Below are positions 13,250 through 61,655 of a stretch of 64,000 nucleotides of DNA, piece after piece (position 1 is the stretch's first letter; the number at the start of each line of letters is the position of its first letter). The translations under genes were made by a program, and so were the position numbers. The notes beneath the pieces are model-generated. The model had not been told where the DNA came from. It did no database searches and worked only from the letters and a program-made list of their open reading frames with translations. The DNA comes from a bacterium (GTDB taxonomy: Bacteria; Patescibacteriota; Minisyncoccia; JAUYLV01), in contig JAUSGO010000031.1 in the NCBI GenBank assembly GCA_030649025.1, positions 9,745-73,744 of the forward strand, read 5' to 3'.

Positions 13250-13305
13250 ACTGCTTGAGCTTCTAGCTTTCGGTTAATAGCTTTTAGAAATATCCATCCC
13301 CAAAA

Positions 13306-17807: not shown

Positions 17808-19616
17808 TTATTGTATCCGCACGTAGAAATCCGGTTCCGCGACGGTTGAGCCGGAGCTTGAAACAAGACCGAACGGATAATCCCCCTCCGGCGCGTCGGC
17901 GTTTGCCGTGATGGTGTAGACGCCGATGCCGGATATCGTTTCCGTGTTGGTATTTGCAAAGAGGACTTCGCAAATTTTATCATCCGCAATATTCCGTACA
18001 CCGATAGAATTCTGCTCGCCCTTGGCATTACAGCCGAACGGATAACTCATGGGAATATATCCAAGCCCCGCAGCGCCGATACTCATCTTTGGGGGCTCGG
18101 CCGGACCCGCTCCATAAACGATAGTGCCGTCAAGAATATAGGAGTCTCCTCGATTGAGGCAAATAACGTTTAGACCGCTAAGTGAACCGCATTTTTTATC
18201 GCCGACGCTCGAGAAGACGGAAAATACGGCGTCAGCGGTAAAACTGTTTATACTTACTTTCTTAACCCATGACCCGGCAAGTCTCGGCACCCAAGCATAC
18301 CCCGCACCGGTCCAATTTCCGGAGGCATCCGTGACGTGTCCATAAAACGTATTTTGTTCTCCCGTCGGCACACCGTCTTTCCAGCTTGACCAGAGAATAT
18401 CGGAATTGGGCGCACCTCCGGTTATGGTATAGATGGGAACTTCTCCTGCTCCATAGCTAGCCTTATCGAGCGCCAGAAGAATCGCGCCTGGGCACGAAGC
18501 ACCGCTTGCCGTGCATGCATTTTGATTTGCACAAATGCCGGCGGTGTTCGGAACGGCAATGCATGCGCCCGATACGCATTCAAAATGCGTTCCCGGAGCA
18601 AGGCACGAATTCGTAGTAACCGAAATCCTGTTTGAGATCATGGCGCCACGAGAATCTTTGCCGGCACCGTCGTATCGCGCCTTGACCTCAAATTTATATA
18701 GCGTCCCCTTGGAAAGGCCGCTAATGTCGTAGGCTAAAACAGAACCCGGGATCAAAAGATCGGGAGTTCTTCCTATCTCAATATCGCTTGCGTTATACCA
18801 TATCACCGTATACTGGGAGGCTTTGCGGTCATCCCAATTCAATCGGACCGTAACCGTGTTGTTCGCCTGACACGCGCCTTGAGGAGCGGCCGCTTCAATC
18901 CGAAGCGTCGGAGCCGGAACGGGCGGAACGCTCACGCACCCCAGCATAATGGCCTGCGCACTCGCGTCACTGGAAATTGAAAGCATAAGACCGTTAACAA
19001 TCTGCCATGGCCGAGCTCCGTTTCCGTCAATCCTGCTTACCGCTTTCAAATTCCCTTCGGATGAATACCCGGCCTCTTCGCAGTTTCCGTCATTCGGCGC
19101 GTTGTATCCGGCGCTTCCACCCTTCCGAAGATTCGTTTTGGGATCAAGTTGCTGGTAATCCTGATAGACGCAGACCTGTGAGGGATTTGAGGTGCTGCCA
19201 CACCGATTCGGCACACCTCCTCCGTCCGTAGTCGAGAAAGTATATCCCCACCAATTAACAACTTGGTTCGCCGGACAAAAACTTTTAGGCAGACTTCCTC
19301 CCTGTCCTCCGCTTCCGCAAAAACCAGCTGTGGCCCATGGACCTTGGCAGGTATCGGTCGTCCCATCAACGTTCAGTTCGCACCTGAAGTCATAGAGCCA
19401 GGCCTCGCTGTCATCCGAACCATACCCGTATCCCGTCAGCACATTCATGTTGCCGCTTGCCGGATCGAATACCGGTGCCGGCCCGGGAAAGGCACTGGTC
19501 GCGTGCGCAATATTCTCCGCGCCAACAAACATTGCCAACGAAAAAAGAAGAAAGCTCGCTTCCTTGAAAAGAACGACGTACGCGCTTCTCTTTTTTTCTG
19601 AAAACTTGTCTCTCAT
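17808..19616 (-). CDS. Large secreted Cys-rich protein with a fibronectin-III-like domain.
   Basis: Signal peptide, many paired Cys residues, FN3-like segment (TLYKFEVKARYDGAG). Confidence 0.5.
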   Translation of the reverse strand: MRDKFSEKKRSAYVVLFKEASFLLFSLAMFVGAENIAHATSAFPGPAPVFDPASGNMNVLTGYGYGSDDSEAWLYDFRCELNVDGTTDTCQGPWATAGFCGSGGQGGSLPKSFCPANQVVNWWGYTFSTTDGGGVPNRCGSTSNPSQVCVYQDYQQLDPKTNLRKGGSAGYNAPNDGNCEEAGYSSEGNLKAVSRIDGNGARPWQIVNGLMLSISSDASAQAIMLGCVSVPPVPAPTLRIEAAAPQGACQANNTVTVRLNWDDRKASQYTVIWYNASDIEIGRTPDLLIPGSVLAYDISGLSKGTLYKFEVKARYDGAGKDSRGAMISNRISVTTNSCLAPGTHFECVSGACIAVPNTAGICANQNACTASGASCPGAILLALDKASYGAGEVPIYTITGGAPNSDILWSSWKDGVPTGEQNTFYGHVTDASGNWTGAGYAWVPRLAGSWVKKVSINSFTADAVFSVFSSVGDKKCGSLSGLNVICLNRGDSYILDGTIVYGAGPAEPPKMSIGAAGLGYIPMSYPFGCNAKGEQNSIGVRNIADDKICEVLFANTNTETISGIGVYTITANADAPEGDYPFGLVSSSGSTVAEPDFYVRIQ

Positions 19617-19626
19617 ATCATCTTAT

Positions 19627-20199
19627 TCATCGTTGTTCAATGGTCTGTCTGCCATTTTGCCTATACGAGACCTGGATACCAACTTCTCCCGTAGGAATTT
19701 GCACCATCGCGATGCGCACGCCGTCCTCTCCCTTTACCGCATCAAGCCTCCCCTCGTTGGCATCGGCCTGGGTCATGGCATTCTGGATGAACTCCCAGCC
19801 CCGTTTTGCGAAATAGTCAGAAAAATATTCTTTATGCTCCTCCAAAGATCGTTTCGAAACATATTCAACTAAAAGATAGGCGTACTGCTCTCCCGGATGT
19901 TCCTGTCTCCAGCTTTGTTTAAAAATAATATCTCTTTCGATAATAAGGTCTTGCGGAAATCCGTGGGGAAGCGCTCCGGGCTTGGAAAAAACGGGCGGCA
20001 GTTCAATCGGCATGCCGGGTGCGGGAATTTGCGAGATCTGCGGCCCGTAATTACGCCCGGGATCGCTGACAAGATATGTAACAGGACTGTTTATGGAAAA
20101 AAATCGTTGCAGCACCCCGTATCTCCAAATGACGAGTGCCATGATAAACGAAGCGATGATTATTGAAATCAAAAGAATTTTTTTTGATCGAGATGCCAT
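19627..20199 (-). CDS. Membrane-anchored hypothetical protein.
   Basis: N-terminal TM helix. It is packed between two secreted-protein genes. Confidence 0.4.
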   Translation of the reverse strand: MASRSKKILLISIIIASFIMALVIWRYGVLQRFFSINSPVTYLVSDPGRNYGPQISQIPAPGMPIELPPVFSKPGALPHGFPQDLIIERDIIFKQSWRQEHPGEQYAYLLVEYVSKRSLEEHKEYFSDYFAKRGWEFIQNAMTQADANEGRLDAVKGEDGVRIAMVQIPTGEVGIQVSYRQNGRQTIEQR

Positions 20200-20305
20200 G
20201 GCTATAATTTTACACTAACCTCGGGATTCAAAAAAGCTTTAAAATTCTCCGCCATTCCCAAAATAAGGACGGCTCGGGCGTTAAACACACATGCGCAAAG
20301 TACGT

Positions 20306-22438
20306 TCACAAAGCTGTGCCACCGCCGCACGAGCCATCGCATTGTATGCTCATATTCTCAATACAAATGTTCGTATTGCATGCGCTGCCCTTGTTTGGGA
20401 CACAACAGGTAGTATTGTCTGGCTGGCAGACGGCCTGCACCCCGGTGCAGGTATTATTGCACGTCCCGCCGCATCCATTATCTCCTCCACATTTTACCGG
20501 CGGACCGGAGCAATTGGGAACACATGCGGCATCGGCAGGGGCAAGGGTAACAACGACGCCCGGCGAGACGCTGCTGTTCCCCGCCGCGTCATACGCTTTT
20601 GCCTGCAAGCGATAGGAACCGTCGTTAATGCTTGAAATATCCCAGTCAAACTCGAAAGATTTAAGATCGTCCCCTCGCCTGCCTGCTCCGATAAGCGCAT
20701 CATTTGCGAGGAAATCAACCCTGACCGCCCCTACATTGTCGCTTGTTACCGCCCAGATAGCGAAATTGTCCTTGAGCGCCGTTACGGGGTTGGTTTGCTT
20801 GGGACTCGTGATATTCACCGTTGGCTTCTGTGTGTCGGCGCCGGGGAAAGGCGCTATGCCAACTTTGGCAAGGCGCTTTTGCAACAATACCCTGCTTAAA
20901 GCGTTGTACCCGAAAGGGTCGGAAAGCGAACGCATGAGAGAGCTTGGAGACGATCGGTAATAAACCGTTTTGCCCGCGCATCCGGCGATACAGGCTGTAA
21001 TATTATATGTGGCGTTATCCCAAAGCGGGCAGGTTTGCGACCCATCGCAGTTTCTTCCCGAAAAGTATGGCGTTGGCTTGTTGTGGTATTCGTCAAGCAG
21101 ACTGCCGAAGGAGTGGCTGAACTCATGTACCGCGGTTCTGGCTACAAAATTCCTTTTCCCCCCAACCGTTGTAACAAATGCCTGTCCTCCAACGCCAAGG
21201 TCCATCTCATTATGGTTTCGATCGTAAGACGATATGCTGGTATCGAAATACGCGCAGCCGGTAGGAGCATCCAACGTACCCGAGCGAACAAATGTTAAGA
21301 CCGTATCGTACGGCCCTTGAGAATTCGTAAGGGCTGTTACGGCGCTTTGATTGCAGGAATAGGCGGGAGCGCATTCGTTCTGGGAACAGTTAAGACGCGT
21401 ATCGGAAAGCGGGAGAAAGCCGACCGGTTCAATGCTGATGGCCGAAGCGAATGCGGCATATGGCTCAAGAGAAAGGAGAAGATCCCTGAACGCCTGCCAG
21501 TCTCCGTCAAACTCCTCCTGGCTCGGATAATTCACGCCGAGCACCGCAATACGCAGCATTCCGCCTGCCGCGCGCGCGGTATTCGGAGCGAACTTGAACG
21601 TCATTTCGGATGCGATGCCGGAGGAACCGTGCCGAAGCGCGAATTTTCTGTGTGATTCTTGGATCGCACTTGCAACAGTCTGTTGGGTAATGAAATTTCC
21701 AATCGCATCGGTAATGACAAGCGTTTTGGCTCCGGTAATTGCCGGCAAAACCATGCCGGCGTTCAATGATCCGATATCCCCCCCGACAAGCTGCGCGGGG
21801 TCAATATTGCCAGATGCATCCAGGACCTCTCCGATCACGGTATTGGGAGCATTGAACGGATGCACAAAAAGCGTCTCACCGTTCACATCCAGAAGTTTTG
21901 CGATATATTCTCCACTGTCGAGCGTCGGTGGCGTATAAAATCCGTCGAATGGCGCTCCGGCTGCAGAAATAACGCTCCCTTCGCCATCGCCGGAGATGTT
22001 CATGTCAACAAAGATCATTGGCGCAGATGCCGGACCGCCTTCTTCTCCGTTACTACCGGTAACTCCGGCCGGGCTTCCCGTGCCGACGAAAGTGCCTACT
22101 ACCTGCACAAAGACCCTTGCGAGAATAAGTATGGTAAACCCTATGACGGCCCACAGCAGGATTTCCTTCGCTTTTCGATATCGTTCTTCGTTGCCAAATG
22201 AGAGCATCATGCGCACACCGGCATACACAATAAGAAAGGCCGCTGCAATGATGCCGATAAAGACGAGAAAATTAACAAGATTGGTGATAAGTTCTTTAAC
22301 AGATCTTGCATTCAAAAAATTCGGTATGGACGCACTGCCGAAAACCACTTGCGCATGCGCTAGCGCCGGTACGGCAAGTGCCAAAACTATAAGAACCAAA
22401 AAAACCAAAGAGATTTTTTTCATATTTTTCCGCATCAA
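20306..22438 (-). CDS. Secreted zinc metallopeptidase (HEFSH...DEY, M64-like) with an N-terminal VirB2/TrbC-like two-helix pilin module and a C-terminal Ig-like Cys-rich region.
   Basis: HEFSHSFGSLLDEY motif. The N-terminus (signal peptide, then helix-SFGNEERYRKAKE-helix) is homologous to the stand-alone pilin-like gene at 43858-44253. Confidence 0.5.
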   Translation of the reverse strand: MMRKNMKKISLVFLVLIVLALAVPALAHAQVVFGSASIPNFLNARSVKELITNLVNFLVFIGIIAAAFLIVYAGVRMMLSFGNEERYRKAKEILLWAVIGFTILILARVFVQVVGTFVGTGSPAGVTGSNGEEGGPASAPMIFVDMNISGDGEGSVISAAGAPFDGFYTPPTLDSGEYIAKLLDVNGETLFVHPFNAPNTVIGEVLDASGNIDPAQLVGGDIGSLNAGMVLPAITGAKTLVITDAIGNFITQQTVASAIQESHRKFALRHGSSGIASEMTFKFAPNTARAAGGMLRIAVLGVNYPSQEEFDGDWQAFRDLLLSLEPYAAFASAISIEPVGFLPLSDTRLNCSQNECAPAYSCNQSAVTALTNSQGPYDTVLTFVRSGTLDAPTGCAYFDTSISSYDRNHNEMDLGVGGQAFVTTVGGKRNFVARTAVHEFSHSFGSLLDEYHNKPTPYFSGRNCDGSQTCPLWDNATYNITACIAGCAGKTVYYRSSPSSLMRSLSDPFGYNALSRVLLQKRLAKVGIAPFPGADTQKPTVNITSPKQTNPVTALKDNFAIWAVTSDNVGAVRVDFLANDALIGAGRRGDDLKSFEFDWDISSINDGSYRLQAKAYDAAGNSSVSPGVVVTLAPADAACVPNCSGPPVKCGGDNGCGGTCNNTCTGVQAVCQPDNTTCCVPNKGSACNTNICIENMSIQCDGSCGGGTAL

Positions 22439-40991: not shown

Positions 40992-41480
40992 CTACCGGGC
41001 ATACACAACGCTCACTTTCGTTTCATTTTGCGAAAGGGCAAAAAGAACCACATGGACCGATGCAAGCCCTTTGGTGCCCCGAAGCGTCGTATATCCTTCC
41101 CCGGATGTTCTGAAACCAAGCGTCCAGCCCTGTGTCCTAAAAACTTCAAGATAAAAAGTTTCCAGTTTTTCAAGCGGCAGGGAGGCGCGATATGCGACGC
41201 TTTGCTGGAGTGCTCCGGTAAAAGCGGTCGTCTCTTCCGCCGAAAACCCCCGCTGGGCTGAAGGCGCAATAAATATCCGGGGGAAGGCTTCGGGAAGGGT
41301 GCCAAGCCGAAGAATATCCTTTCCTGCTTTTGGCAGGGTAAAGCCCGATAAATCTGCCGGATCCGATTCCTTTCTGCTACCTATAAAATCCCTGTACAAC
41401 CCAAAAAATATGGGGTGCGTGTAATATATAACACCCGTAAGTACAATGCCGCAAATAATGGGAATAGCGCTTCGACGCAT
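40992..41480 (-). CDS. Membrane-anchored hypothetical protein.
   Basis: N-terminal TM segment. Confidence 0.4.
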   Translation of the reverse strand: MRRSAIPIICGIVLTGVIYYTHPIFFGLYRDFIGSRKESDPADLSGFTLPKAGKDILRLGTLPEAFPRIFIAPSAQRGFSAEETTAFTGALQQSVAYRASLPLEKLETFYLEVFRTQGWTLGFRTSGEGYTTLRGTKGLASVHVVLFALSQNETKVSVVYAR

Positions 41481-41510
41481 AACTGAATTTGTTTTTCAAC
41501 TTAACAGCTT

Positions 41511-43838
41511 CTAAGGAACTAATTGTCCGCACACATATACCTGAAATCCCAGGAACGTCATCATTGAGACAAAAACAGGCTTTGCAAGGAGCAGCACCAA
41601 AAGCCCCAAGACTCCCGCCCCAAGCGCCTGTTTGCCCTTTTGAACCCGCGCGGGATTTCCAAGCGAAAGGAAAAGGGAGAATCCCGCAAGCACGATAAGA
41701 ATGGCAAATGAGGGAATACCGTACCGGACGAGCACCTTATACACTTCGCAGAGCGAGTAATCGGGAACGCCGCTGACGGGAGGCGCTGTGGGTCCCACAA
41801 TATCTTCCACCGTAAGCGTGCAGGAAGCCGTATTGGCTTTCTGGGGACTGGAACTGTCCGTAACATCAACCGTTGCGTTGTAAATACCGGGATCCGGAAA
41901 TGTTTGGTTAAAGGCGCATGTGCTTTTGCCGTCAATGAGGGGGCTGTCCGAATGCCATGCGCACGAATAAGGCTCCGTGCCGTTTGAAACGTTAATGCTG
42001 AAATCTGCCGTTCCGTCTTCGCTGATAAGGCTTGGAGACATGCGGCATGAGGCATCAAGTATTGATACGCATCTGCCTTCTGCCGTGCATACCTCGCCCT
42101 CTCCAGAACAGGTGCCGCAATCCAGGCATCCGGTCTGGTTATCCGGATTTGGATCGCCGGGAATACAGGCATCACAGCCGTTGGACCACGCACCGCACTG
42201 GGCTCCACCGCTAGCGACCGTGCTACAGGTCTTCGGAATACAAGGGATTTTGGTAAACTCTATAAGAAATTCTGTGGGACGCACCGCATCCAGAGTCCCA
42301 TTAAGTAGTTCGGTGCACGGCTTCTCATCTGTGATATCAACGAGTCCGGGAGTGCCCGCAGAAGAGTTTGGATCAGTGGTTCCCCCCGGCGTAAAATTCG
42401 GGTCATAGGTTCCCCCCGGAGAATAGGTCGGATAATAGCCCCCTCCCTGCGCAAAACTTTGGTTTACGATTCCCGGCGCAAAGCCTTGAGCAATAGTATC
42501 TTGTCCCATATCAAAGCTCTGGTCGATAAGGCGCAATTTGCAGGTGTAATTGGCAAAAAGCGATTCGGTGCCCGGCGGCACGCTCAACGTGTAGGAACCA
42601 AGTTCCATCTTATCATCGTCAAAGGCCAAGGCGGGGGTTGTTGTTGCTGTACCCGGAGCTCCCGCGGTGCTCTCTTTGCGCTCATACGGCGAGGGGCCCT
42701 GGAGAATGAAGGGAAGCCCCAGCTCCGTATCCGGAGCCTCGGCCTTTACGGAACGCACGATGATGCGTCCCGTCACGTTGTAGGCAAGACATAATCCATC
42801 TATTCCCGCATCATCGTCAATTGAGAATTTAATTCCGTAAATGATCCGCCGGGAAGGAGGCAGATTGGGATCGGTAATATCCACTACCGGCGCGGAGTAT
42901 TGGCACTCATTGTACCATCCGCTGTTGCTTCCCGATGCTTTACATCTATTACTCTCGCTCCGCGCATTCTTGTTGGGATCGGGCAGGTCGCTTACAAGCC
43001 GCACGGTTTTGAGATCCATGCCGCCTCTATAGTCACGTTCATCACAGGTACCGTTGTAATCAGCCGGGCTAAGATTATCCAATCCCCTGCCGCTCCAGCC
43101 AAGCAAGGGCCCTATAAGCGTGCCCGATGCCTTATCAACCTTCCGGAATATCTGAAAATAGCAGGGAAGTGTAGGAGACCCATCATCCATATCATCTATA
43201 TCATAACCCCTGCCGCCGCTCGTGCGCGAAGGAGTGAAGCGCCATCCGACGGCATATTTGTCTCTTGGCACAAAAACTTCATAGTCCTTCCTGTCGGGCA
43301 AGTCTCCTGAATTGCACATTCTGGCATGTTGTGCTCCGAGTTGTCCCAATCCCGTAGGGTTATATTTTATCGCGCCACCGGGCTGCAATTCTCCTTCATA
43401 GACATTGGTCATGCATTCTTTATCGTCCGACCCGAAACCGAAGCCGACCATGGCGTATCCTTGTGGACCTACAGTAAGGGCGCCGGGTCCTTCAAGCGGC
43501 GTTCTATTATTTAAATACCAGCTGATGAGTTTGTAGGTAACGAATATGGTAGTAAGAACTATGCCTACAATCGGTATAACATTCGAGCTTAAAATACTGG
43601 AGCCTCCTCCGCCACCTAACGATACCTCTTTTATGGGTTCGAGAAGAATACTGACAGCATTCGCGTCTTGAACGGGATTGAGCGGATCTGCTCTTGCTTC
43701 TAGTGCAGTACTCCCTTCACAGACCGCGGCGATATCCTGGGCTAGAGCTTCCTTGGGTGCGTGCGCCAAAAGCACGCTTAAAAGAATTGCGCCGGCTATT
43801 AAAATTCTTTTATTGTAGAGCATACCAAGAAACATCAT
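41511..43838 (-). CDS. Giant surface protein with a PKD-like Cys-rich extracellular region and a C-terminal VirB2/TrbC-like two-helix pilin module.
   Basis: Signal peptide. C-terminus ...FAILIVLAGFSLFLSLGNPARVQKGKQALGAGVLGLLVLLLAKPVF is homologous to the adjacent 131-aa pilin-like protein (ARRRTAKTTLEAAVIGLLVLLFAKSII). Confidence 0.5.
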   Translation of the reverse strand: MMFLGMLYNKRILIAGAILLSVLLAHAPKEALAQDIAAVCEGSTALEARADPLNPVQDANAVSILLEPIKEVSLGGGGGSSILSSNVIPIVGIVLTTIFVTYKLISWYLNNRTPLEGPGALTVGPQGYAMVGFGFGSDDKECMTNVYEGELQPGGAIKYNPTGLGQLGAQHARMCNSGDLPDRKDYEVFVPRDKYAVGWRFTPSRTSGGRGYDIDDMDDGSPTLPCYFQIFRKVDKASGTLIGPLLGWSGRGLDNLSPADYNGTCDERDYRGGMDLKTVRLVSDLPDPNKNARSESNRCKASGSNSGWYNECQYSAPVVDITDPNLPPSRRIIYGIKFSIDDDAGIDGLCLAYNVTGRIIVRSVKAEAPDTELGLPFILQGPSPYERKESTAGAPGTATTTPALAFDDDKMELGSYTLSVPPGTESLFANYTCKLRLIDQSFDMGQDTIAQGFAPGIVNQSFAQGGGYYPTYSPGGTYDPNFTPGGTTDPNSSAGTPGLVDITDEKPCTELLNGTLDAVRPTEFLIEFTKIPCIPKTCSTVASGGAQCGAWSNGCDACIPGDPNPDNQTGCLDCGTCSGEGEVCTAEGRCVSILDASCRMSPSLISEDGTADFSINVSNGTEPYSCAWHSDSPLIDGKSTCAFNQTFPDPGIYNATVDVTDSSSPQKANTASCTLTVEDIVGPTAPPVSGVPDYSLCEVYKVLVRYGIPSFAILIVLAGFSLFLSLGNPARVQKGKQALGAGVLGLLVLLLAKPVFVSMMTFLGFQVYVCGQLVP

Positions 43839-43857
43839 AACTCAATATACTATATCA

Positions 43858-44253
43858 TCAACACGTCATGGACGTAAGCCGTAAGCCGATGAAATGCAGG
43901 AAGATAATGATAATGCTTTTTGCAAAAAGAAGTACAAGGAGCCCTATGACAGCTGCTTCAAGCGTGGTTTTTGCCGTGCGCCTTCTTGCCTCGTCCCCCT
44001 GCGAGGTCAAAAACCTTATGCCCGCAATGCCGATAATGATGACAACCACAATAAGTCCGAGGGTAACGAGCCAATTTGCCGCAGTACAAAAAATACTATA
44101 GAAAGAAAGAGATGGCAGAGGGTTTTTGGTGGTGAGGTCGTAGATCTCTTCTGCAAGAGCGCCCCTCGCCCTAAAAAAAACAATGCCGGCTAAAATAAAA
44201 AAGGCGGCAGGAAGCGTAGACAATTCGATATTAAACTTTTTAAAAGGATTCAT
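43858..44253 (-). CDS. VirB2/TrbC-like pilin, about 100-aa mature protein with helix-loop-helix topology.
   Basis: Signal peptide cleaved near ARGALA/EE, then two hydrophobic helices separated by the RFLTSQGDEARRRTAKTT loop. Confidence 0.45.
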   Translation of the reverse strand: MNPFKKFNIELSTLPAAFFILAGIVFFRARGALAEEIYDLTTKNPLPSLSFYSIFCTAANWLVTLGLIVVVIIIGIAGIRFLTSQGDEARRRTAKTTLEAAVIGLLVLLFAKSIIIIFLHFIGLRLTSMTC

Positions 44254-44410
44254 GGGTGGATGCCGTATGCCCGGCGGAGGGTGCGGGGTTCGAACTCGCG
44301 GTTCCTGGATAGCTTTTCACTCATTGAAGACATTGTAGCTACCCGCGAAAAGCCAAGACTTTGGCTTTTCGCCCCTTGCGGGTCGCACGCTTTCTGTTGA
44401 AAAACCTAGC

Positions 44411-44498
44411 TGGCGGAGGCGAGAGGATTCGAACCTCTGATACCTTGCGGTATACTCGCTTTCCAAGCGAGCGCACTCGACCGCTATGCGACGCCTCC
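44411..44498 (-). tRNA. tRNA-Ser(GGA) with a long variable arm and encoded CCA.
   Basis: GGAGGCG...CUCGC-UUGGAAA-GCGAG...long variable arm...AGAGG-UUCGAAU-CCUCU-CGCCUCC-G-CCA. Confidence 0.85.
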
Positions 44499-52826: not shown

Positions 52827-53429
52827 TCAAGAACGGATGCAATAGATCGTATCATTGGCAGCGCTTCCGCAATCGCGCGTCGGACAAGAATAGGTTGACG
52901 GCGCGCTGAACGTGCAGGTGACGGATGAAGCTCCCCCTATCCATCCTCCCCCGCCCTGCGAGCCGATGTTTCCGTCCTCGTCATTTACAAACCCCGCTTT
53001 CATGCTTGACGGCAATTCGAAAAATGACGTACGCAACAGCCATTGCTTGGGTTGAAGAGGCAATTCGGTATAGTATTCGTAACGCGAAGAGGCGGAACAG
53101 GATGCTCCCGCATCCTGCGGATCGCGAGGAAGCTGGGCAAGATAGCCGGAAAGTTGAGCCGCAAGGCCGCAGTATCCTTGAGGATCGGAATTCGGATAAC
53201 GCTTCTTGTCCTTGAAATATTGCTCAAGGGAAATGCGCACCTGATTAAGGTCGGCGAGCCTTCGTGCGTCTCTGGCCCTTTGGCGCGCCGAGAATATTGC
53301 TACCGTAACGATAGAAAGCAGAAGCGCCATAATGCCAACTACCACGAGCATTTCGACGAGCGTAAACCCCCTCACTAATCGGGGATTGGCGCAAAGTTTT
53401 TTGATGACATTAATTCTTCCCTTCATCAT
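52827..53429 (-). CDS. Type IV pilin / pseudopilin.
   Basis: Prepilin cleavage and methylation motif GFTLVEMLVV. Confidence 0.8.
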   Translation of the reverse strand: MMKGRINVIKKLCANPRLVRGFTLVEMLVVVGIMALLLSIVTVAIFSARQRARDARRLADLNQVRISLEQYFKDKKRYPNSDPQGYCGLAAQLSGYLAQLPRDPQDAGASCSASSRYEYYTELPLQPKQWLLRTSFFELPSSMKAGFVNDEDGNIGSQGGGGWIGGASSVTCTFSAPSTYSCPTRDCGSAANDTIYCIRS

Positions 53430-53620
53430 ATTTTAGCGAGTTTCGGAAAATTTGTGAGATCTAGCGCCGAAGGCACAATCCCCGATTAGTGTGGGGGTGA
53501 ATCCTTTTTTGATCTGCTGTATGCGCAACATCATAACATTACCGACCCCATCTCTTCTTTTAAAATTTCAAGAGTGGGGTCGGAATGAACGAAACAAGAA
53601 TTTTTGGTTCTTTCTGGGAC

Positions 53621-54196
53621 CTAGGCACCTACGCAATAGGCAATGCCGTTGGCTCCGCCGGAATCCGTACAATCGTAACCATTGTTCGCCGCGTACCCGC
53701 CGGTTGCACTGTCATTGTCGTTGCCCAAAGATGCATTTGTGCTTTCTTCGATCGTTGCGGTCAGAATATAGTGAAGACATGTGTCCGCTGCTGCATCGCA
53801 ATTTAGCGGAGATGCCGCACTATCGCCTGGAATATAGCCATAGATATACGTTGCGCCTCCTGTTGGATCGCTCGGCAGTCCGCCTATATACGTGGGAACG
53901 AGAGCTCCGATGCCTGTCGATGCGGTTCCTATGAAAGCAGTATTTGCCTGTGCCTTTGTGTACAAAGCTCCTGATGCTTGCGCAAAGTATGGATACTCTT
54001 GACTGGCATCAAAATATAATTCCAGCGCAAGCTGTATCTGGCGAAGGTCGCCCACACGACGCGAGTCGCGGGCTTTGCGGCGCGCCGAGGACAGCGACAC
54101 CAGCACGATAGATGCGAGTAATCCGATAATAGCGATAACCACGAGGAGCTCAATAAGAGTGAACCCATGCATGGCTTTTCTGAATTTTTGTATCAT
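53621..54196 (-). CDS. Type IV pilin.
   Basis: GFTLIELLVVIAIIGLLASIV N-terminus. Confidence 0.8.
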   Translation of the reverse strand: MIQKFRKAMHGFTLIELLVVIAIIGLLASIVLVSLSSARRKARDSRRVGDLRQIQLALELYFDASQEYPYFAQASGALYTKAQANTAFIGTASTGIGALVPTYIGGLPSDPTGGATYIYGYIPGDSAASPLNCDAAADTCLHYILTATIEESTNASLGNDNDSATGGYAANNGYDCTDSGGANGIAYCVGA

Positions 54197-54394
54197 AGCG
54201 GCTTATTAACAAGTTAACGAATTTTTGGTTAACCGGTTAAAAAGAAATTAAAGCTAAATGTTAATATAATATAACAAAACTGACATTGCTCCGGAAGGCG
54301 TTAAGAGTAAATATTCGACCTTTTACCCTAAAGTCAGCCGAAACAGCATGTTTACATTATCTCACGTTTTTTTCTTAAGGAAAAGCGCGATTAT

Positions 54395-54711
54395 CCACAC
54401 CCCTACACCTTTTAAGCCCGGACGATGCTGCTTCGTATACGGCGTTTGAGCTGGCCCCAGGCTTTCCCATTGCGCTTCATCTGCTTCTCTCTTCGGGCAG
54501 CATCGTCCTGATCACCATATGCTTCGTAATATGCCAAAGTGAATGGTCTGCGAGGTTTTGTTGATTGCACAAGCCCGCGCTGATGTTCTGCAAATCTTTT
54601 CCGCAAATCACCGGTGAAGCCTAGATAGAGTTTATGATCGTGTTTACTTTTCAGAATATAGAAATAGTGCATGATTTGCAGAACATAGGCTTGAAAGGTG
54701 TGGGGGCACAG
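54395..54711 (-). mobile_element. GIY-YIG mini-element, copy 2: the ORF is bracketed by the 13-bp IR CACCCCTACACCTTT / AAAGGTGTGGGGG.
   Basis: The IR arms lie at 54397-54411 and 54695-54707 and flank the ORF. Same architecture as copy A but with different IR sequence. Confidence 0.5.
54412..54672 (-). CDS. GIY-YIG nuclease family protein, 86 aa.
   Basis: MHYFYILKSKHDHKLYLGFTGDLRKRFAEH... Paralog of the gene at 48813-49031. Confidence 0.75.
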   Translation of the reverse strand: MHYFYILKSKHDHKLYLGFTGDLRKRFAEHQRGLVQSTKPRRPFTLAYYEAYGDQDDAARREKQMKRNGKAWGQLKRRIRSSIVRA

Positions 54712-54716
54712 CCTAT

Positions 54717-55925
54717 CTAGCCGGCCGTTGAGACGCTGTTATAGATGGGGAGCAAAATGGACAAAACGAGCACCAAAACCCCGCCGCCCAGAACCAAGAT
54801 GACCAGCGGCTCGATGAGGGTAGTGAGATTCTCCGTCATGCTGTCAACTTCACGCGCGTAGAACCGCGAAAGGCTCGCCAGAATACTATCGAGCTTCCCC
54901 GACCGCTCTCCCACGGAGATCATCTGCGAAACCATAAGCGGCATGTGCGGCGACTTCTGGAACACCGAACTTATCGTATTGCCCGCTTTCACTTCCTCCA
55001 TGCTCTTTTTTATCAGCGCGACGTATACCTCGTTACCGACCACGCGGGAGGTGACGTCGAGCGCCTTGATAATGGGAAGCCCGCCTTTGATGAGCGTGGA
55101 GAGATTTTCTGAAATTCTCGAGATATAAAGTTTGGTGAACATGTCCCCCAAAACCGGAAATTTAAGAAGAAGCCTGTCCGTGATGGCTTTACCTTGCGGC
55201 GTTTGCACCACCCAGCGTCCTGCAAAAAATAGCGCTCCCGCGATAAGCGGAAGCGTGAACCACCAATGCTGAAAGAAGGAACTTGCGGCAATGAGTATTT
55301 TTGTGGGAAGGGGCAGCTCCGTTCCGAGCTCCGTCAGTACGGAGGTGAGCTTTGGGATAACGAAGATCATGAGGAAAATGGTTATCAGGATGAAAACAAT
55401 GATAATCACCGCAGGATACATGAGCGCCCCGCGGACCTTCTGCATGAGCGCATATTCCTTCTCTTCGTGATTGGCGAGATAATCAAGGGATTCCTGCAGT
55501 CTTCCCGACACTTCTCCGGATTCCACCATGCTCACATAATACTTGGAGAAGATCTTCGGATACTTGGCAAGCGTCTGGGAGAAAGCAGTTCCGGCATCCA
55601 CTTCTTCGGCCATCGCGCCCAGCACGCTTCGGAAGTATTCATTATCCGTCTGCACCCCGAGCGTCCGCAGACTTTCCACCAAGGGAACGGTTGCTTCAAA
55701 AAGCGTGGCAAGCTGCCGCGAAAAGATAACGATATCCTTGTTTTTGACACTCTGAAAAAGCTTCGAGAGCGAACTCAAGAATTTGGAGTGCTGTACCTGC
55801 TCCAGGGAGACAACTACCAGATTATTGCGATGAAGCAGGTCTAGCGCGGCATCCTGCGTTGCGGCTTCAACCATGCCGTTTTGCGTCTCTCCGTTTTTTG
55901 TTCTGGCGGTATAACTGAACTGCAT
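54717..55925 (-). CDS. pilC: Type IV pilus assembly platform protein PilC (GspF family).
   Basis: Two GspF repeats and three TM segments. Confidence 0.9.
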   Translation of the reverse strand: MQFSYTARTKNGETQNGMVEAATQDAALDLLHRNNLVVVSLEQVQHSKFLSSLSKLFQSVKNKDIVIFSRQLATLFEATVPLVESLRTLGVQTDNEYFRSVLGAMAEEVDAGTAFSQTLAKYPKIFSKYYVSMVESGEVSGRLQESLDYLANHEEKEYALMQKVRGALMYPAVIIIVFILITIFLMIFVIPKLTSVLTELGTELPLPTKILIAASSFFQHWWFTLPLIAGALFFAGRWVVQTPQGKAITDRLLLKFPVLGDMFTKLYISRISENLSTLIKGGLPIIKALDVTSRVVGNEVYVALIKKSMEEVKAGNTISSVFQKSPHMPLMVSQMISVGERSGKLDSILASLSRFYAREVDSMTENLTTLIEPLVILVLGGGVLVLVLSILLPIYNSVSTAG

Positions 55926-56040
55926 TAAAGAAATTCAAAATGCAAAACTCAAAATGCAAAATTTAGGAATATCGTGAAAGTTTTTCTTCAAAAAACTTTC
56001 ACTCCAAAATTTTGATTTTTGATTTTTGATTTTGCTTAAA
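55926..56040. repeat. Family-1 palindromic element.
   Basis: caaaatgcaaaactcaaaatgcaaaatttaggaatatcGTGAAAGTTTTTCTTCAAAAAACTTTCACtccaaaattttgatttttgatttttgattttg. Confidence 0.7.
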
Positions 56041-56043
56041 TCA

Positions 56044-57120
56044 TCATTTCAACGATGATTTGAGCATCATATGAAGCTCTTGCGGATTTTGGGAATACGC
56101 TTCGGCGTCTTCGAAGGCAATGGCGCCCGTGTGCACCAGCGTTGACAAAGACTTGTTAAGCGAGATCATGCCTTCGTCGGCGCTCGTCTCAATGACCAGA
56201 TCAAGCTGATGGGTCTTTCCCTCGCGGATGAGCGTGCGTATCGCCGAATTTGCCACCATAAGCTCGACCGCGGGTATCACTCCCCCTCCGATACGGGGAA
56301 TGAGGCGCTGGGAAATAATGCCCAGCAAAGAACTGGAAAGCTGTGACTTTATCTGTCCTTGGGCTTGCGGCGGAAACGAGTCGATGATGCGGTCAATGGT
56401 TTGCGCCGCGGAATTCGTATGGAGGGTGGAAAAAATGAGATGCCCTGTTTCGGCAGCCGTGACCGCGGCCGCGATGGTTTCGGGGTCCCGCATTTCTCCT
56501 ATCATCACCACGTCGGCGTCCTGGCGGAACACACTGCGCAACGCCCGGTGAAATGACAGCGAATCGTGATAAACTTCGCGCTGGTCAATAATCGCCCTAT
56601 CGGGAGAAAAAATGTACTCTATGGGATCCTCGATGGTAATGATGTGGTCTGCCCGCGTATGGTTTATTTCATCTATAATAGCCGCCAGCGTCGTGGATTT
56701 GCCATGTCCGGTGGGACCGGCCACCAGCACGAATCCCTGAGAAGGTTTTACGAATTCACGCACGATGGGAGGAAGCGACAGCTCCTCCATGGTCCGAATC
56801 TTCGTGGGAATAAGCCGCATGGCTACCGACAAAAACCCGCGCTGAAAAAAAACATTCACGCGGAAGCGCGCCTTTTCTTTGTAGTCGAACGACATGTCCA
56901 TTTCCTTGTCGCGCGCAAGCTGTTCCGACTGCTCTTTGGAGAGCATGATGCCTACAATACCGCGCGTGTACTCGGCGGTTGAAAAATCTTTCTTGCTGAT
57001 GGCATACAACACCCCGTCGATACGAAGCGAGGGGTGGCGGCCCACCGTCAAATGCAGATCCGATGCATTCTGTTTTATCACGGTGCTTAGAAGATCGTCG
57101 AGTTCAAGTTCGTAGTTCAT
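56044..57120 (-). CDS. pilT: Twitching motility ATPase PilT.
   Basis: GPTGHGKSTT Walker A plus the PilT Asp and His boxes. Confidence 0.9.
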   Translation of the reverse strand: MNYELELDDLLSTVIKQNASDLHLTVGRHPSLRIDGVLYAISKKDFSTAEYTRGIVGIMLSKEQSEQLARDKEMDMSFDYKEKARFRVNVFFQRGFLSVAMRLIPTKIRTMEELSLPPIVREFVKPSQGFVLVAGPTGHGKSTTLAAIIDEINHTRADHIITIEDPIEYIFSPDRAIIDQREVYHDSLSFHRALRSVFRQDADVVMIGEMRDPETIAAAVTAAETGHLIFSTLHTNSAAQTIDRIIDSFPPQAQGQIKSQLSSSLLGIISQRLIPRIGGGVIPAVELMVANSAIRTLIREGKTHQLDLVIETSADEGMISLNKSLSTLVHTGAIAFEDAEAYSQNPQELHMMLKSSLK

Positions 57121-57224
57121 CCCGTTAGAGGCAGGTCGCGGTCTTCTGGGACCGAACTGCCTGATAAATAGTAAGAATTCATTAAAAAGTTTACTTCATT
57201 TAAATCCTCGCTAGCGACCGCGGC
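57121..57224. repeat. Family-3 inverted-repeat element abutting the pilT start codon.
   Basis: CCCGTTAGAGGCAGGTCGCGGTC ... GACCGCGGCCTCTAACGGG, about 20-bp arms. Confidence 0.55.
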
Positions 57225-57258
57225 CTCTAACGGGATTCGTACCATTGTTCATTTCAGC

Positions 57259-57630
57259 TTATCCCAGAATCGATTTAACTTTGTCCACCACTTCCTGCGG
57301 CGTAAAATGCGCTTTAACCACATAGGATACGGCGCCGAGCGCCTTCCCTTTTTCAATATCTTCTTTCTGTCCAAGATTGGTCAACATCATCACCGGCACT
57401 GCCGAGATTGTAGGATCCTTTTTGAGCGCGGCCAAAACCTCAAATCCGTCCATTTCCGGAATAAGTACGTCGAGCAAAACCACGTCGGGCATCCATTCTT
57501 TTGCTTTGGCAAGACCATCTTTGCCGGTCATGGCAACCTCGCAGGCATACCCCTGCTTTTCAAATTTGGTCACGTACATCTCGGAGATGAACGGATCATC
57601 TTCAACCAATAATATCTTTTTTTTATCCAT
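57259..57630 (-). CDS. CheY-like single-domain response regulator (PilH-like).
   Basis: Receiver domain with DD...D...K residues. Confidence 0.85.
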   Translation of the reverse strand: MDKKKILLVEDDPFISEMYVTKFEKQGYACEVAMTGKDGLAKAKEWMPDVVLLDVLIPEMDGFEVLAALKKDPTISAVPVMMLTNLGQKEDIEKGKALGAVSYVVKAHFTPQEVVDKVKSILG

Positions 57631-57681
57631 ATGGGTGCGTTACGCTTAGAAGTAAACTGGGTTCCGCATTTAAAAATTTTA

Positions 57682-59460
57682 TCACTCTTCCACTTCCGTT
57701 TCTACGGTCTGCAACACCTCCTCAAGCGTGGTAAATCCCTGCAGGACTTTTTGGAGACCATCTTGCTTCATGGTAACCATATTCTGACGCCTGGCTTCTT
57801 CCTGAAGTTTTTCTTCGGTAACGCCGGAAAGCACGATGCGCTCAAGCTGGGGGGTCATCGTGAGCATTTCATAAATAGCAATTCTCCCCTTCAACCCTTT
57901 ATTGCCGCATTTCTTGCAACCCTTAGCTTCCCATAGCTTAAGCGGGGGAACAAGGGATATGATGGATTTATTCTCTTCGGGCAGGCTCTGCAATTCTTTC
58001 AAGATAAGATCTTCTTTTTCTTTTGGAGCGGGAACCTGGATTCTGCAGTCCTGGCATAATTTTCGCACAAGCCGCTGTGCTACGGCAAGAAGTATGGAAG
58101 AAGGAAGCAGAAACGGCTGAACACCCATGTCAATGAGACGCGGAAAAACGCCCAGAGCATCGTTCGTGTGGAGCGTAGACAGCACGAGGTGTCCCGTAAG
58201 CGCGGCGTGCACCGCAAGTTCCGCCGTTTCGTTGTCTCGAATTTCGCCGACCATGATGATGTCGGGGTCCTGGCGCAAAATTGAACGGAGACCCGAGGCA
58301 AAAGTATAGTCCACTTCCGGCTGGATCTGCGACTGGTTGATGCCTTCGATAAAATACTCCACCGGATCCTCCAGCGAGATGATGTTCACGCCTTCTTCGT
58401 TGAGCGTGCTGAAAACCGAGTATAGCGTTGTCGTCTTGCCCGATCCGGTGGGACCCGTGATGAGCATCATGCCGAAAGGCTTGTCGATGGCCAGTTCCAG
58501 AAGCCGCAGATTCCTTCCCTGAAGACCCAATCCCTCAAAAGTCTTGATCCCCACGATAGGATCCAAAATACGCAGTACTGCCTTCTCGCCAGTTACCGTA
58601 GGCAGAATGGAGACGCGGAAATCGATCTTCCGGTTTTCCAGCCTGGTGTGGAAACGGCCGTCCTGGGGCTTTCGCGTTTCGTCTATTTTGAGATTCGAGA
58701 GGATTTTGATGCGCGCGGTTACCGCCGCATGCACCTGCTTGGGAAGAATGATGGACGTATGCAACACGCCGTCCACCCGGAACCGCACGCGCACTTCTTT
58801 CTCTATGGGCTCTATGTGAATATCGGACGCCCTCCCTTCAATGGCATGCTTCAAAATTACGGCCACCATTTTGGTGATAGGAGCCTCTTCACCAAGCTCT
58901 TCTTCTCCTTTTTTCTTGGAAGCCGCCAATGCCGCCCCTCCGGCATCTTTCTCCTTTCCGGATGCGATTTCATGCTGTAACTCCTCGAGCGCTTTTTCAA
59001 CTTCGCCCTTAAGCGTTCTGTATTGTTTCAGGATGTCCAGAAAATCCTGCGGGCTCACCAAAAATATCTTGGCGACAAGCCCGAGCCGCAGAGCTATGAA
59101 TTGCAGAGCCTCCTGCGCCACGACATCTTCCGGCGACAGCATGCCTACTTCAAGGATACGCGCGGCCTTATCGACTTTGATGGGAAAGAACCGGTAGTGT
59201 TTCGCCGCCTCTTCGGGAATCTCGCGCAATGTTTCATAATTTGCCTGAAAACCGGCAAGATCCCGATACGGAAATCCTGAAAATTTTGATTTTGCTTCCA
59301 GGAGTTTTTTTTCGTCAATAAGCCGCCGCGCATAGATGATCTCCATCGCGTCTTTATCTTCATCTTTTTCCGCTTTTATAATTTCTTTGCAGACATCCTC
59401 ATCGAGCAGTTTCTCTGCAACCAGGTATTCAAGAAAAGTTTTTTGAGAATCGGAAACCAC
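57682..59460 (-). CDS. pilB: Type IV pilus assembly ATPase PilB (GspE family).
   Basis: GSPII_E N-terminal domain, GPTGSGKTTT, and a C-terminal tetracysteine motif. Confidence 0.9.
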   Translation of the reverse strand: MVSDSQKTFLEYLVAEKLLDEDVCKEIIKAEKDEDKDAMEIIYARRLIDEKKLLEAKSKFSGFPYRDLAGFQANYETLREIPEEAAKHYRFFPIKVDKAARILEVGMLSPEDVVAQEALQFIALRLGLVAKIFLVSPQDFLDILKQYRTLKGEVEKALEELQHEIASGKEKDAGGAALAASKKKGEEELGEEAPITKMVAVILKHAIEGRASDIHIEPIEKEVRVRFRVDGVLHTSIILPKQVHAAVTARIKILSNLKIDETRKPQDGRFHTRLENRKIDFRVSILPTVTGEKAVLRILDPIVGIKTFEGLGLQGRNLRLLELAIDKPFGMMLITGPTGSGKTTTLYSVFSTLNEEGVNIISLEDPVEYFIEGINQSQIQPEVDYTFASGLRSILRQDPDIIMVGEIRDNETAELAVHAALTGHLVLSTLHTNDALGVFPRLIDMGVQPFLLPSSILLAVAQRLVRKLCQDCRIQVPAPKEKEDLILKELQSLPEENKSIISLVPPLKLWEAKGCKKCGNKGLKGRIAIYEMLTMTPQLERIVLSGVTEEKLQEEARRQNMVTMKQDGLQKVLQGFTTLEEVLQTVETEVEE

Positions 59461-59465
59461 ATGAA

Positions 59466-59537
59466 TAGCTTTTAGCTTATGGCTTATGGCTTTTAGGGAA
59501 TATCATTGTGCCCTATAAGCTATAAGCTGTAAGCTAT
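59466..59537. repeat. AGCT-rich palindromic intercistronic repeat.
   Basis: tagcttttagcttatggcttatggcttttaggg-loop-ccctataagctataagctgtaagcta. Confidence 0.55.
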
Positions 59538-59586
59538 GCGCTGTTTATTGCTCATAGCAATCCAAAATCAAAGATAGTCCGAAACT

Positions 59587-60021
59587 TCACAATGGCAATT
59601 CAAAAGACAAAGAGGGCTCCGGAGTAAAAGTCGGCGGAGAAGATGTAACTGAAAGAACGGGGGTCGCCAGTGATTGCTTCAAAAAAGGATTTGGGTTCCC
59701 TTTTTCCGGAACGGTTACGGGATTATCTTTTGAATATGTTCTCAATTCCTTAAACAGCTCGCTCTTCACCACCTCGGTATCGAGTTTTATGCGCCCAATG
59801 TCGAGAGCGGGAACGGTTCTCGAACCTCCGCGAGAAGTTTGGGATTGGGGAACAGCCTGGGTTTGAGAAGAAACTTCTTGGCTAGATAACAGGGCGGGAG
59901 AGTAAAAAAATACGCGATACACGATAATGCCGGCCACTATGAAGAATGTACCGGCAATAATAAGCAGGCGTTTTTGTTTCGGATCTTTTAATTGAGACTG
60001 GAAGTTTGTTTGAAAGGCCAC
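59587..60021 (-). CDS. Membrane-anchored hypothetical protein, possibly a PilP-like pilus assembly protein.
   Basis: One TM segment. Its position between pilO and pilB is the only functional evidence. Confidence 0.35.
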   Translation of the reverse strand: MAFQTNFQSQLKDPKQKRLLIIAGTFFIVAGIIVYRVFFYSPALLSSQEVSSQTQAVPQSQTSRGGSRTVPALDIGRIKLDTEVVKSELFKELRTYSKDNPVTVPEKGNPNPFLKQSLATPVLSVTSSPPTFTPEPSLSFELPL

Positions 60022-60109
60022 ACGAATAGCTTTTAGCTTTTAGCTTTTAGCTTTTAGGGGGACGGCGCGGTCAGTTCCTATAAGCTACGGGCTATGAGCT
60101 ATGAGCCGC
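60022..60109. repeat. AGCT-rich palindromic intercistronic repeat.
   Basis: (agctttt)4...cctataagctacgggctatgagctatgagc. Confidence 0.55.
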
Positions 60110-60670
60110 TTATGTTTGTAGACCGTAGTACATGCGCACACTTAGATTAAAAGTGAAGAGTTGTGATCCTTCCCCTGACGGAACCGAGAATTGCAGCGCC
60201 CACACGTCTATGATGCGAAGTTCTTTTTCAAGAGCTTTCAGGAACCCGTCCAACGCTTCATAACTTCCCGTCACGGAGATGCTTGCTTGCATCGTCTGAT
60301 ACGGGAGGGATCCTTGGGTCTTCGATCTCGTTGTTGCGTCCAATGCGGTCTCGCTGACATTAAAAGAGATGTCGTCAAGCGTCATGCCGTTTTGCGAGGC
60401 TATTTCCGGAATTTCGACAAGAAGATTCGGAATATCGGGCATTGGGGGGAAGATCTGCGCGACTTTTGATGCAACATCTTCCACTTCGCGATACTGGGCT
60501 TCAAGATTTTTAATCTTGGATACGAGAAGCTGTTTTTCCTGCAACGCCTCTTCGGCCTGGGTGCGCGCGACCTTCGCTTCTCCGAGACCTCGGTATTCGG
60601 GCAATACCAACCACACTACCACTGCAATGGTACCGAGGGACAGGAGAGCAATGAAGAGTTTTTTGAGCAT
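60110..60670 (-). CDS. PilO-like pilus assembly protein.
   Basis: TM segment, coiled coil, then a ferredoxin-like domain. Operon position supports the call. Confidence 0.55.
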   Translation of the reverse strand: MLKKLFIALLSLGTIAVVVWLVLPEYRGLGEAKVARTQAEEALQEKQLLVSKIKNLEAQYREVEDVASKVAQIFPPMPDIPNLLVEIPEIASQNGMTLDDISFNVSETALDATTRSKTQGSLPYQTMQASISVTGSYEALDGFLKALEKELRIIDVWALQFSVPSGEGSQLFTFNLSVRMYYGLQT

Positions 60671-60764
60671 GTACGACGCATCGATACGAATATACGAATT
60701 ACTGATGATGCGGATGAAATCCCGTTCGTATAATCCGCATCATTGGTATATTGGCATCGATGCT

Positions 60765-61364: not shown

Positions 61365-61499
61365 GCCAATGTCGTCTAACCCAGCCGTCTAAGCTCTAAA
61401 AAATAGCTTCGGGCTGAATGATAGTACATTATTTTTCTTGATGATTTATTTTTCTTTTTATGTATAGACGGCTGGGTTAGCTACGACGTTGAGCACCCC

Positions 61500-61655
61500 G
61501 CCCTCTAAGCCATTTTAATATATTCTCGGAAATCTTTCTCGCCTTCTTGCCAAAGCGGCTCTTGTCTACACATCCCTATCGCATAGAGGGCGGGGTAAGG
61601 TTTTGTTCCTGCGTTTCGTTCGCAACAAAGCGCTTCGAAACGCAGACAAAGCCCT
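61500..61655 (-). repeat. ORF-less (MITE-like) derivative of the GIY-YIG element, copy B.
   Basis: Same IR (gagcaccccgccctctaag / atagagggcggggtaa) and a covarying 17-bp hairpin CTGCGTTTCG...CGAAACGCAG. Only a short ATGC remnant of the ORF start remains. Confidence 0.6.

Follow-up and report, generated by a model that had tools for sequence, protein, structure and literature searches.

Two-helix VirB2-like pilin hairpins, alone and joined to large surface domains, in a patescibacterial genome

Why does a two-helix hairpin resembling the pilins of type IV secretion systems (T4SS) occur at the end of a large, Cys-rich surface protein and again at the start of a metallopeptidase? The question is raised by a stretch of 64,000 nucleotides (nt) from a patescibacterial genome (contig JAUSGO010000031.1), here called the window, for which an earlier note had described such a module in three genes. 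All three open reading frames (ORFs) are present on the minus strand: p131 (43858..44253), a stand-alone VirB2-like pilin; p775 (41511..43838), a chimeric pilin with the hairpin at its C-terminus; and p710 (20306..22438, with a TTG start), a chimeric pilin-peptidase with the hairpin at its N-terminus. The module consists of a signal peptide, a hydrophobic helix, a basic loop and a second hydrophobic helix. We consider it rather probable that p131 is a small pilin and that p775 and p710 are chimeric pilins, which join the same hairpin to large extracellular domains and display these at the cell surface, p775 being a minor pilin.

In Kyte-Doolittle hydropathy profiles, p131 and p710 each begin with a segment like a signal peptide, behind which lie two strongly hydrophobic helices; p775 shows two such helices at its extreme C-terminus (amino acids (aa) 699-730 and 737-767). 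In BLASTP comparisons with composition-based statistics, aa 42-126 of p131 align with aa 684-767 of p775 (35% identity over 85 aa, E=7e-5) and aa 44-123 with aa 40-119 of p710 (35% identity over 80 aa, E=2e-12). The Pfam family PF18895 (T4SS_pilin, gathering threshold 26.6 bits) matches p131 at 32.8 bits (aa 58-115) and p710 at 51.0 bits (aa 45-114), both above the cutoff. The TrbC/VirB2 family PF04956, with a threshold of 27.9 bits, comes just below its cutoff on p710 (25.4 bits, E=1.6e-5, profile positions 6-96 of 98) and has no match in p131 or p775 in the Pfam scan. The identification of the module as a VirB2/TrbC-related pilin is supported by PF18895 on p131 and p710 and by the near match of PF04956 to p710. 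Among the NCBIfam models, p131 and p710 weakly match the 'Mbov_0395 family pilin-like conjugal transfer protein', known from Mycoplasma integrative conjugative elements, below its threshold.

A profile built from 63 modules of other organisms, with the three window sequences left out, scores p710 at 88.9, p131 at 84.4 and p775 at 52.8 bits (these 63 modules had themselves been retrieved by a profile seeded with the window sequences). Orthologues of p775 reach 43-53 bits, against 4.6 bits for the next best of the 895 six-frame ORFs in the window; the low-scoring ORFs include other membrane proteins, among them HtpX, PilC and an aquaporin. A search of the same 895 ORFs with a profile of the three modules found no fourth copy. 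As a control we scored two sets of 300 shuffles, one global and one in which each position retains its hydrophobic or polar class. Their maxima lie at 10-20 bits against 58-95 bits for real modules, and shuffles of the p775 module stay at or below 14 bits. Because the shuffles remain this far below the real modules, the likeness is not compositional. Judged by sequence, the three modules are homologous copies of the patescibacterial VirB2-like pilin hairpin, PF18895. The earlier note's placement of the same module at the C-terminus of p775 and the N-terminus of p710 is therefore borne out by the BLASTP matches, by the 52.8 bits of p775 against the foreign modules and by the 51.0 bits of p710 against PF18895. 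The case that the note had named against itself, a generic two-helix membrane anchor with only compositional likeness, is excluded by the shuffles and by the window background of at most 4.6 bits.

The stand-alone copy, p131, is an ordinary small pilin. Its signal peptide covers approximately aa 1-34 (ALA/EE) and its hairpin aa 42-131 (43861-44130). AF2 models a helical hairpin with helices at aa 47-83 and 88-122, at a predicted local distance difference test (pLDDT) score of 79-89. Together with hydropathy and PF18895, this agrees with the T4SS-pilin topology proposed for the 131-aa gene. There are exactly two cysteines, C56 and C131, one on each side of the hairpin. Orthologues are P0043, L003:1-216 and L007:689-1048. 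In the assembly L005 the orthologue is P0033, in which a signal peptide is followed by a 425 aa ectodomain, Ig-like (immunoglobulin-like) and Cys-rich, and then by a hairpin of the p131 type; P0044 and P0058 follow the same design at shorter length. A YDLTxxNPLxxLSF motif ahead of the hairpin is kept in the bare (p131, P0043) as well as the extended versions (P0033, P0044, P0058).

This retained junction could be explained by transient attachment of the ectodomain: proteolysis at the junction, for example at Y-D-L-T-x-x-N-P-L, would free a soluble protein and a mature small pilin, and the hairpin would serve as an export carrier. VirB2, TraA and TrbC are indeed made with long leaders and processed, as is generally known, and p710 itself carries a protease domain. 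Against such a release stand the lack of any known cleavage motif, the absence of the YDLT motif from p775 and p710, the p710 orthologue P0004, which carries domains on either side of its hairpin, and the Cys directly before helix 1, which would need to remain with the pilin. We regard release as very unlikely.

The layout of p775 was derived from Pfam, hydropathy, BLASTP and the foreign-module profile. A signal peptide (aa 1-33) is followed by about 50 aa, a hydrophobic helix (aa 86-110) and an ectodomain that we call 'X' (aa 111-380). Beyond a middle region come a Cys-rich stretch (aa 531-595), a PKD-like domain (aa 596-680) and, last, the pilin hairpin (aa 684-775; 41514..41789, minus strand). 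The hairpin is bracketed by C697 and C770, which are invariant in the family alignment. In total the protein has 26 Cys, an even number that includes a conserved C40. PKD (PF00801) scores 17.5 bits on aa 596-680, below its cutoff of 23.5. AF2 models beta strands for aa 590-680 (pLDDT 70-80), which makes an Ig-like fold plausible for this part. Of the previous description of the 775-aa protein as Cys-rich and PKD-like, the first half is confirmed by the cysteine count, and the second stays at a sub-threshold match accompanied by modelled strands. A sorting signal of the LPXTG, PEP-CTERM or PGF-CTERM type at the C-terminus was considered and rejected: there are two helices with a basic loop, and the protein ends in ...VCGQLVP with no basic tail.

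All orthologues of p775 keep the C-terminal hairpin: P0002 (62% identity), L005:3833-6139 (42%), L007:1042-2733 (the single locus returned by a search with the p131 subfamily alignment) and the fragment P0140. Compared with the L007 orthologue and P0140, the most distant of these relatives, the hairpin of p775 is 54% identical and the N-terminal ectodomains are 18-31% identical. No further members of the family were found in the species-representative genomes and JGI metagenomes searched.

The two genes also travel together. In the window p131 and p775 are separated by 19 nt, and 30 nt downstream of p775 lies p162 (40992..41480, minus strand), a small protein with an N-terminal anchor. In four assemblies (the window, L003, L005 and L007) a small pilin is followed by a p775-type protein, then by a small protein of about 162 aa with an anchor and by DnaG, with RpoD after DnaG where the contig extends that far. 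The pilin slot is variable, since in L005 it is taken by P0033. From its recurrence in four independent assemblies, the conserved cassette indicates that the chimeric architecture is real and under selection. The p162 protein has no Pfam match; its orthologues are labelled PF27226 AF_1845, weakly in one case.

The third copy stands at the other end of its protein. In p710 a signal peptide and the hairpin (aa 40-125; 22064-22321) are followed by a Gly/Ser linker, an M64-like HExxH metallopeptidase region with the sequence HEFSH (21113-21127, minus strand), a Big_7 Ig domain (20600-20824, minus strand, 35.9 bits) and a Cys-rich tail. The NCBI record P0003 places the start five codons later, giving 705 aa. 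From aa 438 onward the protein reads HEFSHSFGSLLDEY, the HEFSH...DEY motif of a putative zinc site. Peptidase_M64 (PF09471, cutoff 26 bits) reaches 17.0 bits on p710 and 19.7-22.1 bits on its orthologues, all below threshold, and a PDB search gives the putative peptidase 4df9 at E=0.17. All 21 cysteines lie after the module, none of them in the helices or the loop. The orthologues P0004 and P0005 combine PF18895, Big_7 and the same sub-threshold M64-like match. In L004, P0004 has a thioredoxin-reductase-like gene on one side and GAPDH on the other, the same surroundings as those of p710 in the window. In P0004 Ig-like and Cys-rich domains precede the hairpin and the peptidase follows it, so that a single hairpin is flanked by ectodomains on both sides.

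On which side of the membrane do these domains lie? A survey of 436 modules from the top-150 proteins of the profile search provides a clue: 97 modules have a Cys before helix 1 as well as one after helix 2, 20 have only the first, 8 only the second and 311 neither (Fisher p=3e-66). This pair defines, in sequence terms, a 'stapled' subclass of PF18895 that includes p131 (C56/C131) and p775 (C697/C770), p710 belonging to the Cys-less class. The covariation of the pair implies a disulfide, by which the hairpin flanks of p131 and p775 are probably tied together, and therefore a position of both flanks on the same, extracytoplasmic side. In that arrangement the basic loops (DEARRRTAK in p131, PARVQKGK in p775, EERYRKAK in p710) would lie inside the cell; the even helix count of the poly-pilins described below and the design of P0004 agree with this predicted topology. 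The expectation that domains at either end of the hairpin are displayed outside is consistent with the two-sided ectodomains of P0004 and the co-occurring Cys pair. VirB2 and TrbC pilins are closed head-to-tail by cyclisation, and it is plausible by analogy that the disulfide staple is a functional counterpart of this closure.

Fusions of this kind are not restricted to the window. A database search with the three-module profile returned 26,854 clusters (formed at 50% identity) at an E-value of 1e-3 or lower, of which 987 lie at 1e-10 or lower, with up to 17 matched stretches per protein. We then took a census of architectures over the top 150 cluster representatives and homologues, 152 proteins in all. 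One module is present in 18 of the 152, and 2-11 locally detectable modules in the other 134. About 30 of the census proteins (drawn from the best 150 of 26,854 clusters, plus homologues) have at least 150 non-module residues before, after or between the hairpins, and some have extra domains at both ends. Most of the top profile matches are poly-pilins with 2-17 hairpins, for example P0006, P0008, P0009, P0012 and P0015. Each poly-pilin opens with a single signal peptide; the tandem units behind it measure about 83 aa and contain no further signal peptides. Some poly-pilins also carry large N- or C-terminal ectodomains. On the unrelated contig L008, two giant genes (L008:4846-7848 and L008:10107-13190) join ectodomains, one of them a PPC domain, to six or more hairpins. 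They have TrbC scores of 65-76 bits and PIN and toxin-antitoxin genes as neighbours; on PF04956 the multi-module relatives P0067, P0088 and L008:10107-13190 score 61-76 bits. As these genes of an unrelated contig also combine ectodomains with hairpins, the fusion principle is widespread.

The census bears on the suspicion that the shared module reflects generic two-helix composition, or that the fusions arose by frameshift or stop read-through in metagenome assembly. The p775 module does fall under the Pfam cutoff, and a glutamate dehydrogenase in the window looks frameshifted. Nonetheless, the shuffles, the window background and the BLASTP E-values given above speak against chance, the same fusions occur in independent assemblies (NCBI, ENA, Logan), and poly-pilins are not read-through products of gene arrays, since their units lack internal signal peptides. 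We consider artefact effectively refuted, with a negligible probability left to it.

The claim of the earlier note that such an architecture has not been described for VirB2 pilins holds for the literature and not for the databases, in which it is common (the approximately 30 proteins just mentioned). No description of poly-pilins or of pilin-ectodomain fusions was found in the literature searched, which comprised open-access papers and bioRxiv only, so that absence there is not proof. Stand-alone pilins and arrays have already been published (PMC12102498, PMC10633639); new, as undescribed in the literature searched, is the fusion of the pilin hairpin to large ectodomains.

How could these proteins work? 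The precursor would be inserted through the Sec pathway, after which the signal peptide would be removed. Helix 1 would then run from the outside to the inside, the short basic loop would lie in the cytoplasm and helix 2 would lead back out, leaving both flanks extracellular. Because both flanks would be extracellular, domains fused ahead of the hairpin (X, the Cys-rich region and PKD in p775) or behind it (the M64-like zinc peptidase and the Ig domain in p710) would be displayed on the monoderm cell. Finally, the hairpin would still contact its pilin partners, either other pilins or the assembly platform. Such retained contacts are suggested by a hairpin that is typical of the family, is the best-conserved part of the p775 orthologues and always has beside it a small pilin of the stapled subtype. 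Co-transcribed with p131, p775 may be an adhesin-bearing minor pilin beside the major pilin p131, comparable to FimH or to tip minor pilins. Surface display is the best-supported and most likely part of this proposal; incorporation into a pilus is plausible, and co-assembly in a filament is speculative.

Several observations weigh against this proposal. Scanned alone, the C-terminus of p775 has PF18895 as its best Pfam match at only 17.8 bits (E=0.0037), below the cutoff. Module profiles of 3 and of 66 sequences gave no sequence match to solved pilins in the PDB. With Foldseek, the p131 model finds its best PDB match in 8dfu, the conjugation pilus of Aeropyrum pernix, at a probability of 0.96, but the E-value of 0.49 is not significant and no match reaches 1e-3. 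The full-length AF2 model of p775, from a 5-row alignment, has a pLDDT of 37.7 and is of use only in the PKD-like part. A Pfam scan covered nearly all ORFs of appreciable size in the window, and none of those scanned in the 64 kb contains VirB4, VirB6, VirD4, VirB3 or VirB8 families. Housekeeping genes surround both loci: dnaG and rpoD the one, GAPDH and the thioredoxin-reductase-like gene the other. No experimentally seen filament of PF18895 proteins was found in the literature read. A 600 aa ectodomain on every subunit would moreover not fit a helical lattice of the VirB2 type, so that incorporation could only be sparse or terminal.

A further difficulty lies in the extra, strongly hydrophobic helix of p775 (aa 86-110; 43509..43583, minus strand), which hydropathy places after the signal peptide and ahead of the ectodomain. 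Were this helix to cross the membrane, the Cys-rich ectodomain would come to lie in the cytoplasm, which does not fit the simple topology. The helix is kept in P0002 and the L005 orthologue; the L007 orthologue lacks it and begins with a plain signal peptide. A cytoplasmic ectodomain conflicts with this plain signal peptide, with the even number of 26 Cys and with p602, a secreted protein that shares ectodomain X and has a signal peptide only.

The main rival to surface display with a link to a pilus takes the PF18895 hairpin as a pure two-pass anchor with its ends outside, pilin-derived or convergent, that tethers ectoenzymes or adhesins without any connection to a T4SS or a filament. It would account for a window without type IV secretion genes, for the housekeeping neighbourhood and for the synteny that p710 orthologues share with housekeeping genes in L004. 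Proteins made up solely of tandem hairpins, 2 to 17 in number, resemble polytopic membrane proteins more than filament subunits, and big ectodomains are sterically awkward in a VirB2 lattice, judged from general knowledge of F- and T-pilus structures. An anchor would, however, hardly need the family-specific residues that the hairpin retains well past hydrophobicity (as seen with the foreign-module profile and the shuffles), and it is unusual for a mere anchor to be the best-conserved part of p775 across orthologues. In addition, p775 always has a Cys-stapled small pilin directly upstream, at 19 nt in the window and adjacent in L003, L005 and L007, and in published assemblies that have both genes a pilin gene lies near virB4 in 1,135 of 1,948 (PMC12102498). 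We hold the pure anchor to be possible but somewhat unlikely. Even if the hairpin were only an anchor, it would represent a widespread mode of surface-protein anchoring in a phylum with reduced genomes, and the co-varying Cys staple would still support a position of both hairpin ends outside the cell.

The proposal of surface-displayed chimeric pilins can also be extended. The VirB2-type hairpin might be a general incorporation tag in Patescibacteria, by which adhesins and enzymes are drawn from the pilin pool into a T4SS-dependent filament or stalk: p131 and p775 would be a major and tip pair, p710 a pilus-borne protease, and the poly-pilins pre-linked segments of a protofilament. We find this extension unlikely as things stand. 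If true, it would mean a conjugative-type pilus decorated with enzymes and adhesins at the contact with the host and the first chimeric VirB2-class pilin system, supplying the missing adhesins and effectors of the epibiont T4SS.

The two loci of the window (17808-22438 and 40992-44253) resemble paralogous cassettes, each with a pilin-module protein, an ectodomain-X protein and a small N-terminally anchored protein. In the first, the X protein is p602 (17808..19616, minus strand), a secreted Cys-rich protein without pilin hairpin that has one N-terminal hydrophobic segment and an fn3-like region (21.8 bits, cutoff 25); X is common to p775 and p602 at E=1e-5 over 153 aa. The small protein with an N-terminal anchor is p190 (19627..20199, minus strand), located between p710 and p602, and p162 and p190 are weak paralogues (E=3e-4).

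A fragment resembling the T-arm and acceptor 3' end of a tRNA, GAGTTCGAACCCCGCACCCTCCGCC, is seen at 44273-44302 (minus strand). It precedes the start of p131 by about 20 nt and lies approximately 110 nt downstream of a tRNA-Ser(GGA) at 44411-44498. It is possibly a tRNA remnant. An att-site repeat was considered and rejected, as the fragment is not within 5 edits of the 3' end of the tRNA-Ser and has no second copy in the window. A recent origin of the p131 locus from a mobile element is likewise rejected because the locus is syntenic in four genomes. Scans for promoters and terminators gave nothing exceeding the shuffle expectation.

The housekeeping genes of the window comprise DnaG, RpoD, HtpX, LemA, GAPDH, a split transketolase, ClpB, a DEAH helicase, XseA, UvrC and IspH. 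Of these, ClpB shares about 60% identity with proteins named Parcubacteria, Patescibacteria group, Portnoybacteria, Magasanikbacteria and Uhrbacteria, which marks the source as a deep-branching patescibacterium. The transketolase (11602-14211, minus strand) is present as separate genes for the N-terminal (13348-14211) and the C-terminal part (11602-12591), with a 160 aa Big_7 Ig-domain protein between them (12767-13249). The glutamate dehydrogenase (22435-23675, minus strand) seems split by eye into overlapping ORFs in different frames (22914-23675 and 22435-23025), as a frameshift, a pseudogene or an error of assembly would produce. Two DUF5667 proteins are found at 10695-11474 and 63254-63943.

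A type IV pilus cluster occupies 52827-62869 (minus strand), with PilM, PilO, PilB, PilT, PilC and two pilins with the N-methyl motif (52827-53429 and 53621-54196). This system is separate from the VirB2-like pilins. The identity of a type IV pilus pilin was rejected for p131, p775 and p710, none of which matches N_methyl (PF07963). According to the literature, type IV pili serve host adhesion in cultured Saccharibacteria.

Among known systems, the families of monoderm conjugation NF045849 (Mbov_0395), NF045848 (MMCAP2_0566) and NF045890 (pLS20_p028) are uncharacterised and match p131 and p710 weakly across the hairpin, at 13-25 bits against curated cutoffs of 40-150; the models NF045848 and NF045890, 322-377 positions long, contain a hairpin and extra sequence. 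With the TrbC/VirB2/TraA pilins of diderms (PF04956) and the archaeal Ced pilins (PDB 8dfu) the window modules share a leader peptide, a hydrophobic helical hairpin and a short basic loop. They differ in a probable disulfide staple in place of the cyclisation of VirB2 and TrbC, and in having no sequence match to solved pilins. To our knowledge no VirB2, TraA or TrbC in nature carries large fused domains, and the literature searched contained no example. Chimeric pilins would give a natural precedent for the display of cargo on VirB2-class pilins.

In general design, the chimeras resemble FimH of type 1 pili and the minor pilins of the TcpB, CofB and GspK type, in which a docking pilin domain is joined to an adhesin or enzyme domain and the gene lies beside that of the major pilin. 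Folds and assembly machines are unrelated, and incorporation, proven there, is only inferred here. The VirB5 tip adhesin, PrgB-type adhesins and 'extended VirB6' are functional analogues that give the apparatus contact or adhesion and have no homology to the chimeras. The last are membrane subunits of type IV secretion systems that are able to gain large hydrophilic domains (PMC12857230). PrgB-like adhesins themselves were not found in Patescibacteria (PMC12102498), which leaves a role for adhesin-bearing pilins.

The nearest relatives are the VirB2-like pilins of Patescibacteria, which are widespread and form arrays of 2-11 genes (PMC12102498, PMC10633639, PMC12857230). In S. epibionticum, the one genetically tractable member of the phylum, type IV secretion genes and an array of VirB2-like pilins are essential for epibiotic life (PMC10633639). 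Chimeric pilins with adhesin-like or protease domains would be concrete candidates for the contact and effector functions of the epibiont type IV secretion system. The pilins of Ca. Southlakia epibionticum ML1 and Ca. Nanosynbacter lyticus TM7x belong to the same Pfam family, PF18895, and the same phylum as the window modules, and share with them the signal peptide and two-helix hairpin, several divergent paralogues per genome and a chromosomal rather than plasmid location. The window, by comparison, contains no type IV secretion gene in its 64 kb, and its pair of pilin and chimera adjoins dnaG and rpoD. Whereas the published pilins are small, stand-alone and often arrayed by virB4, two of the three copies described here are fused to ectodomains of 580-680 aa.

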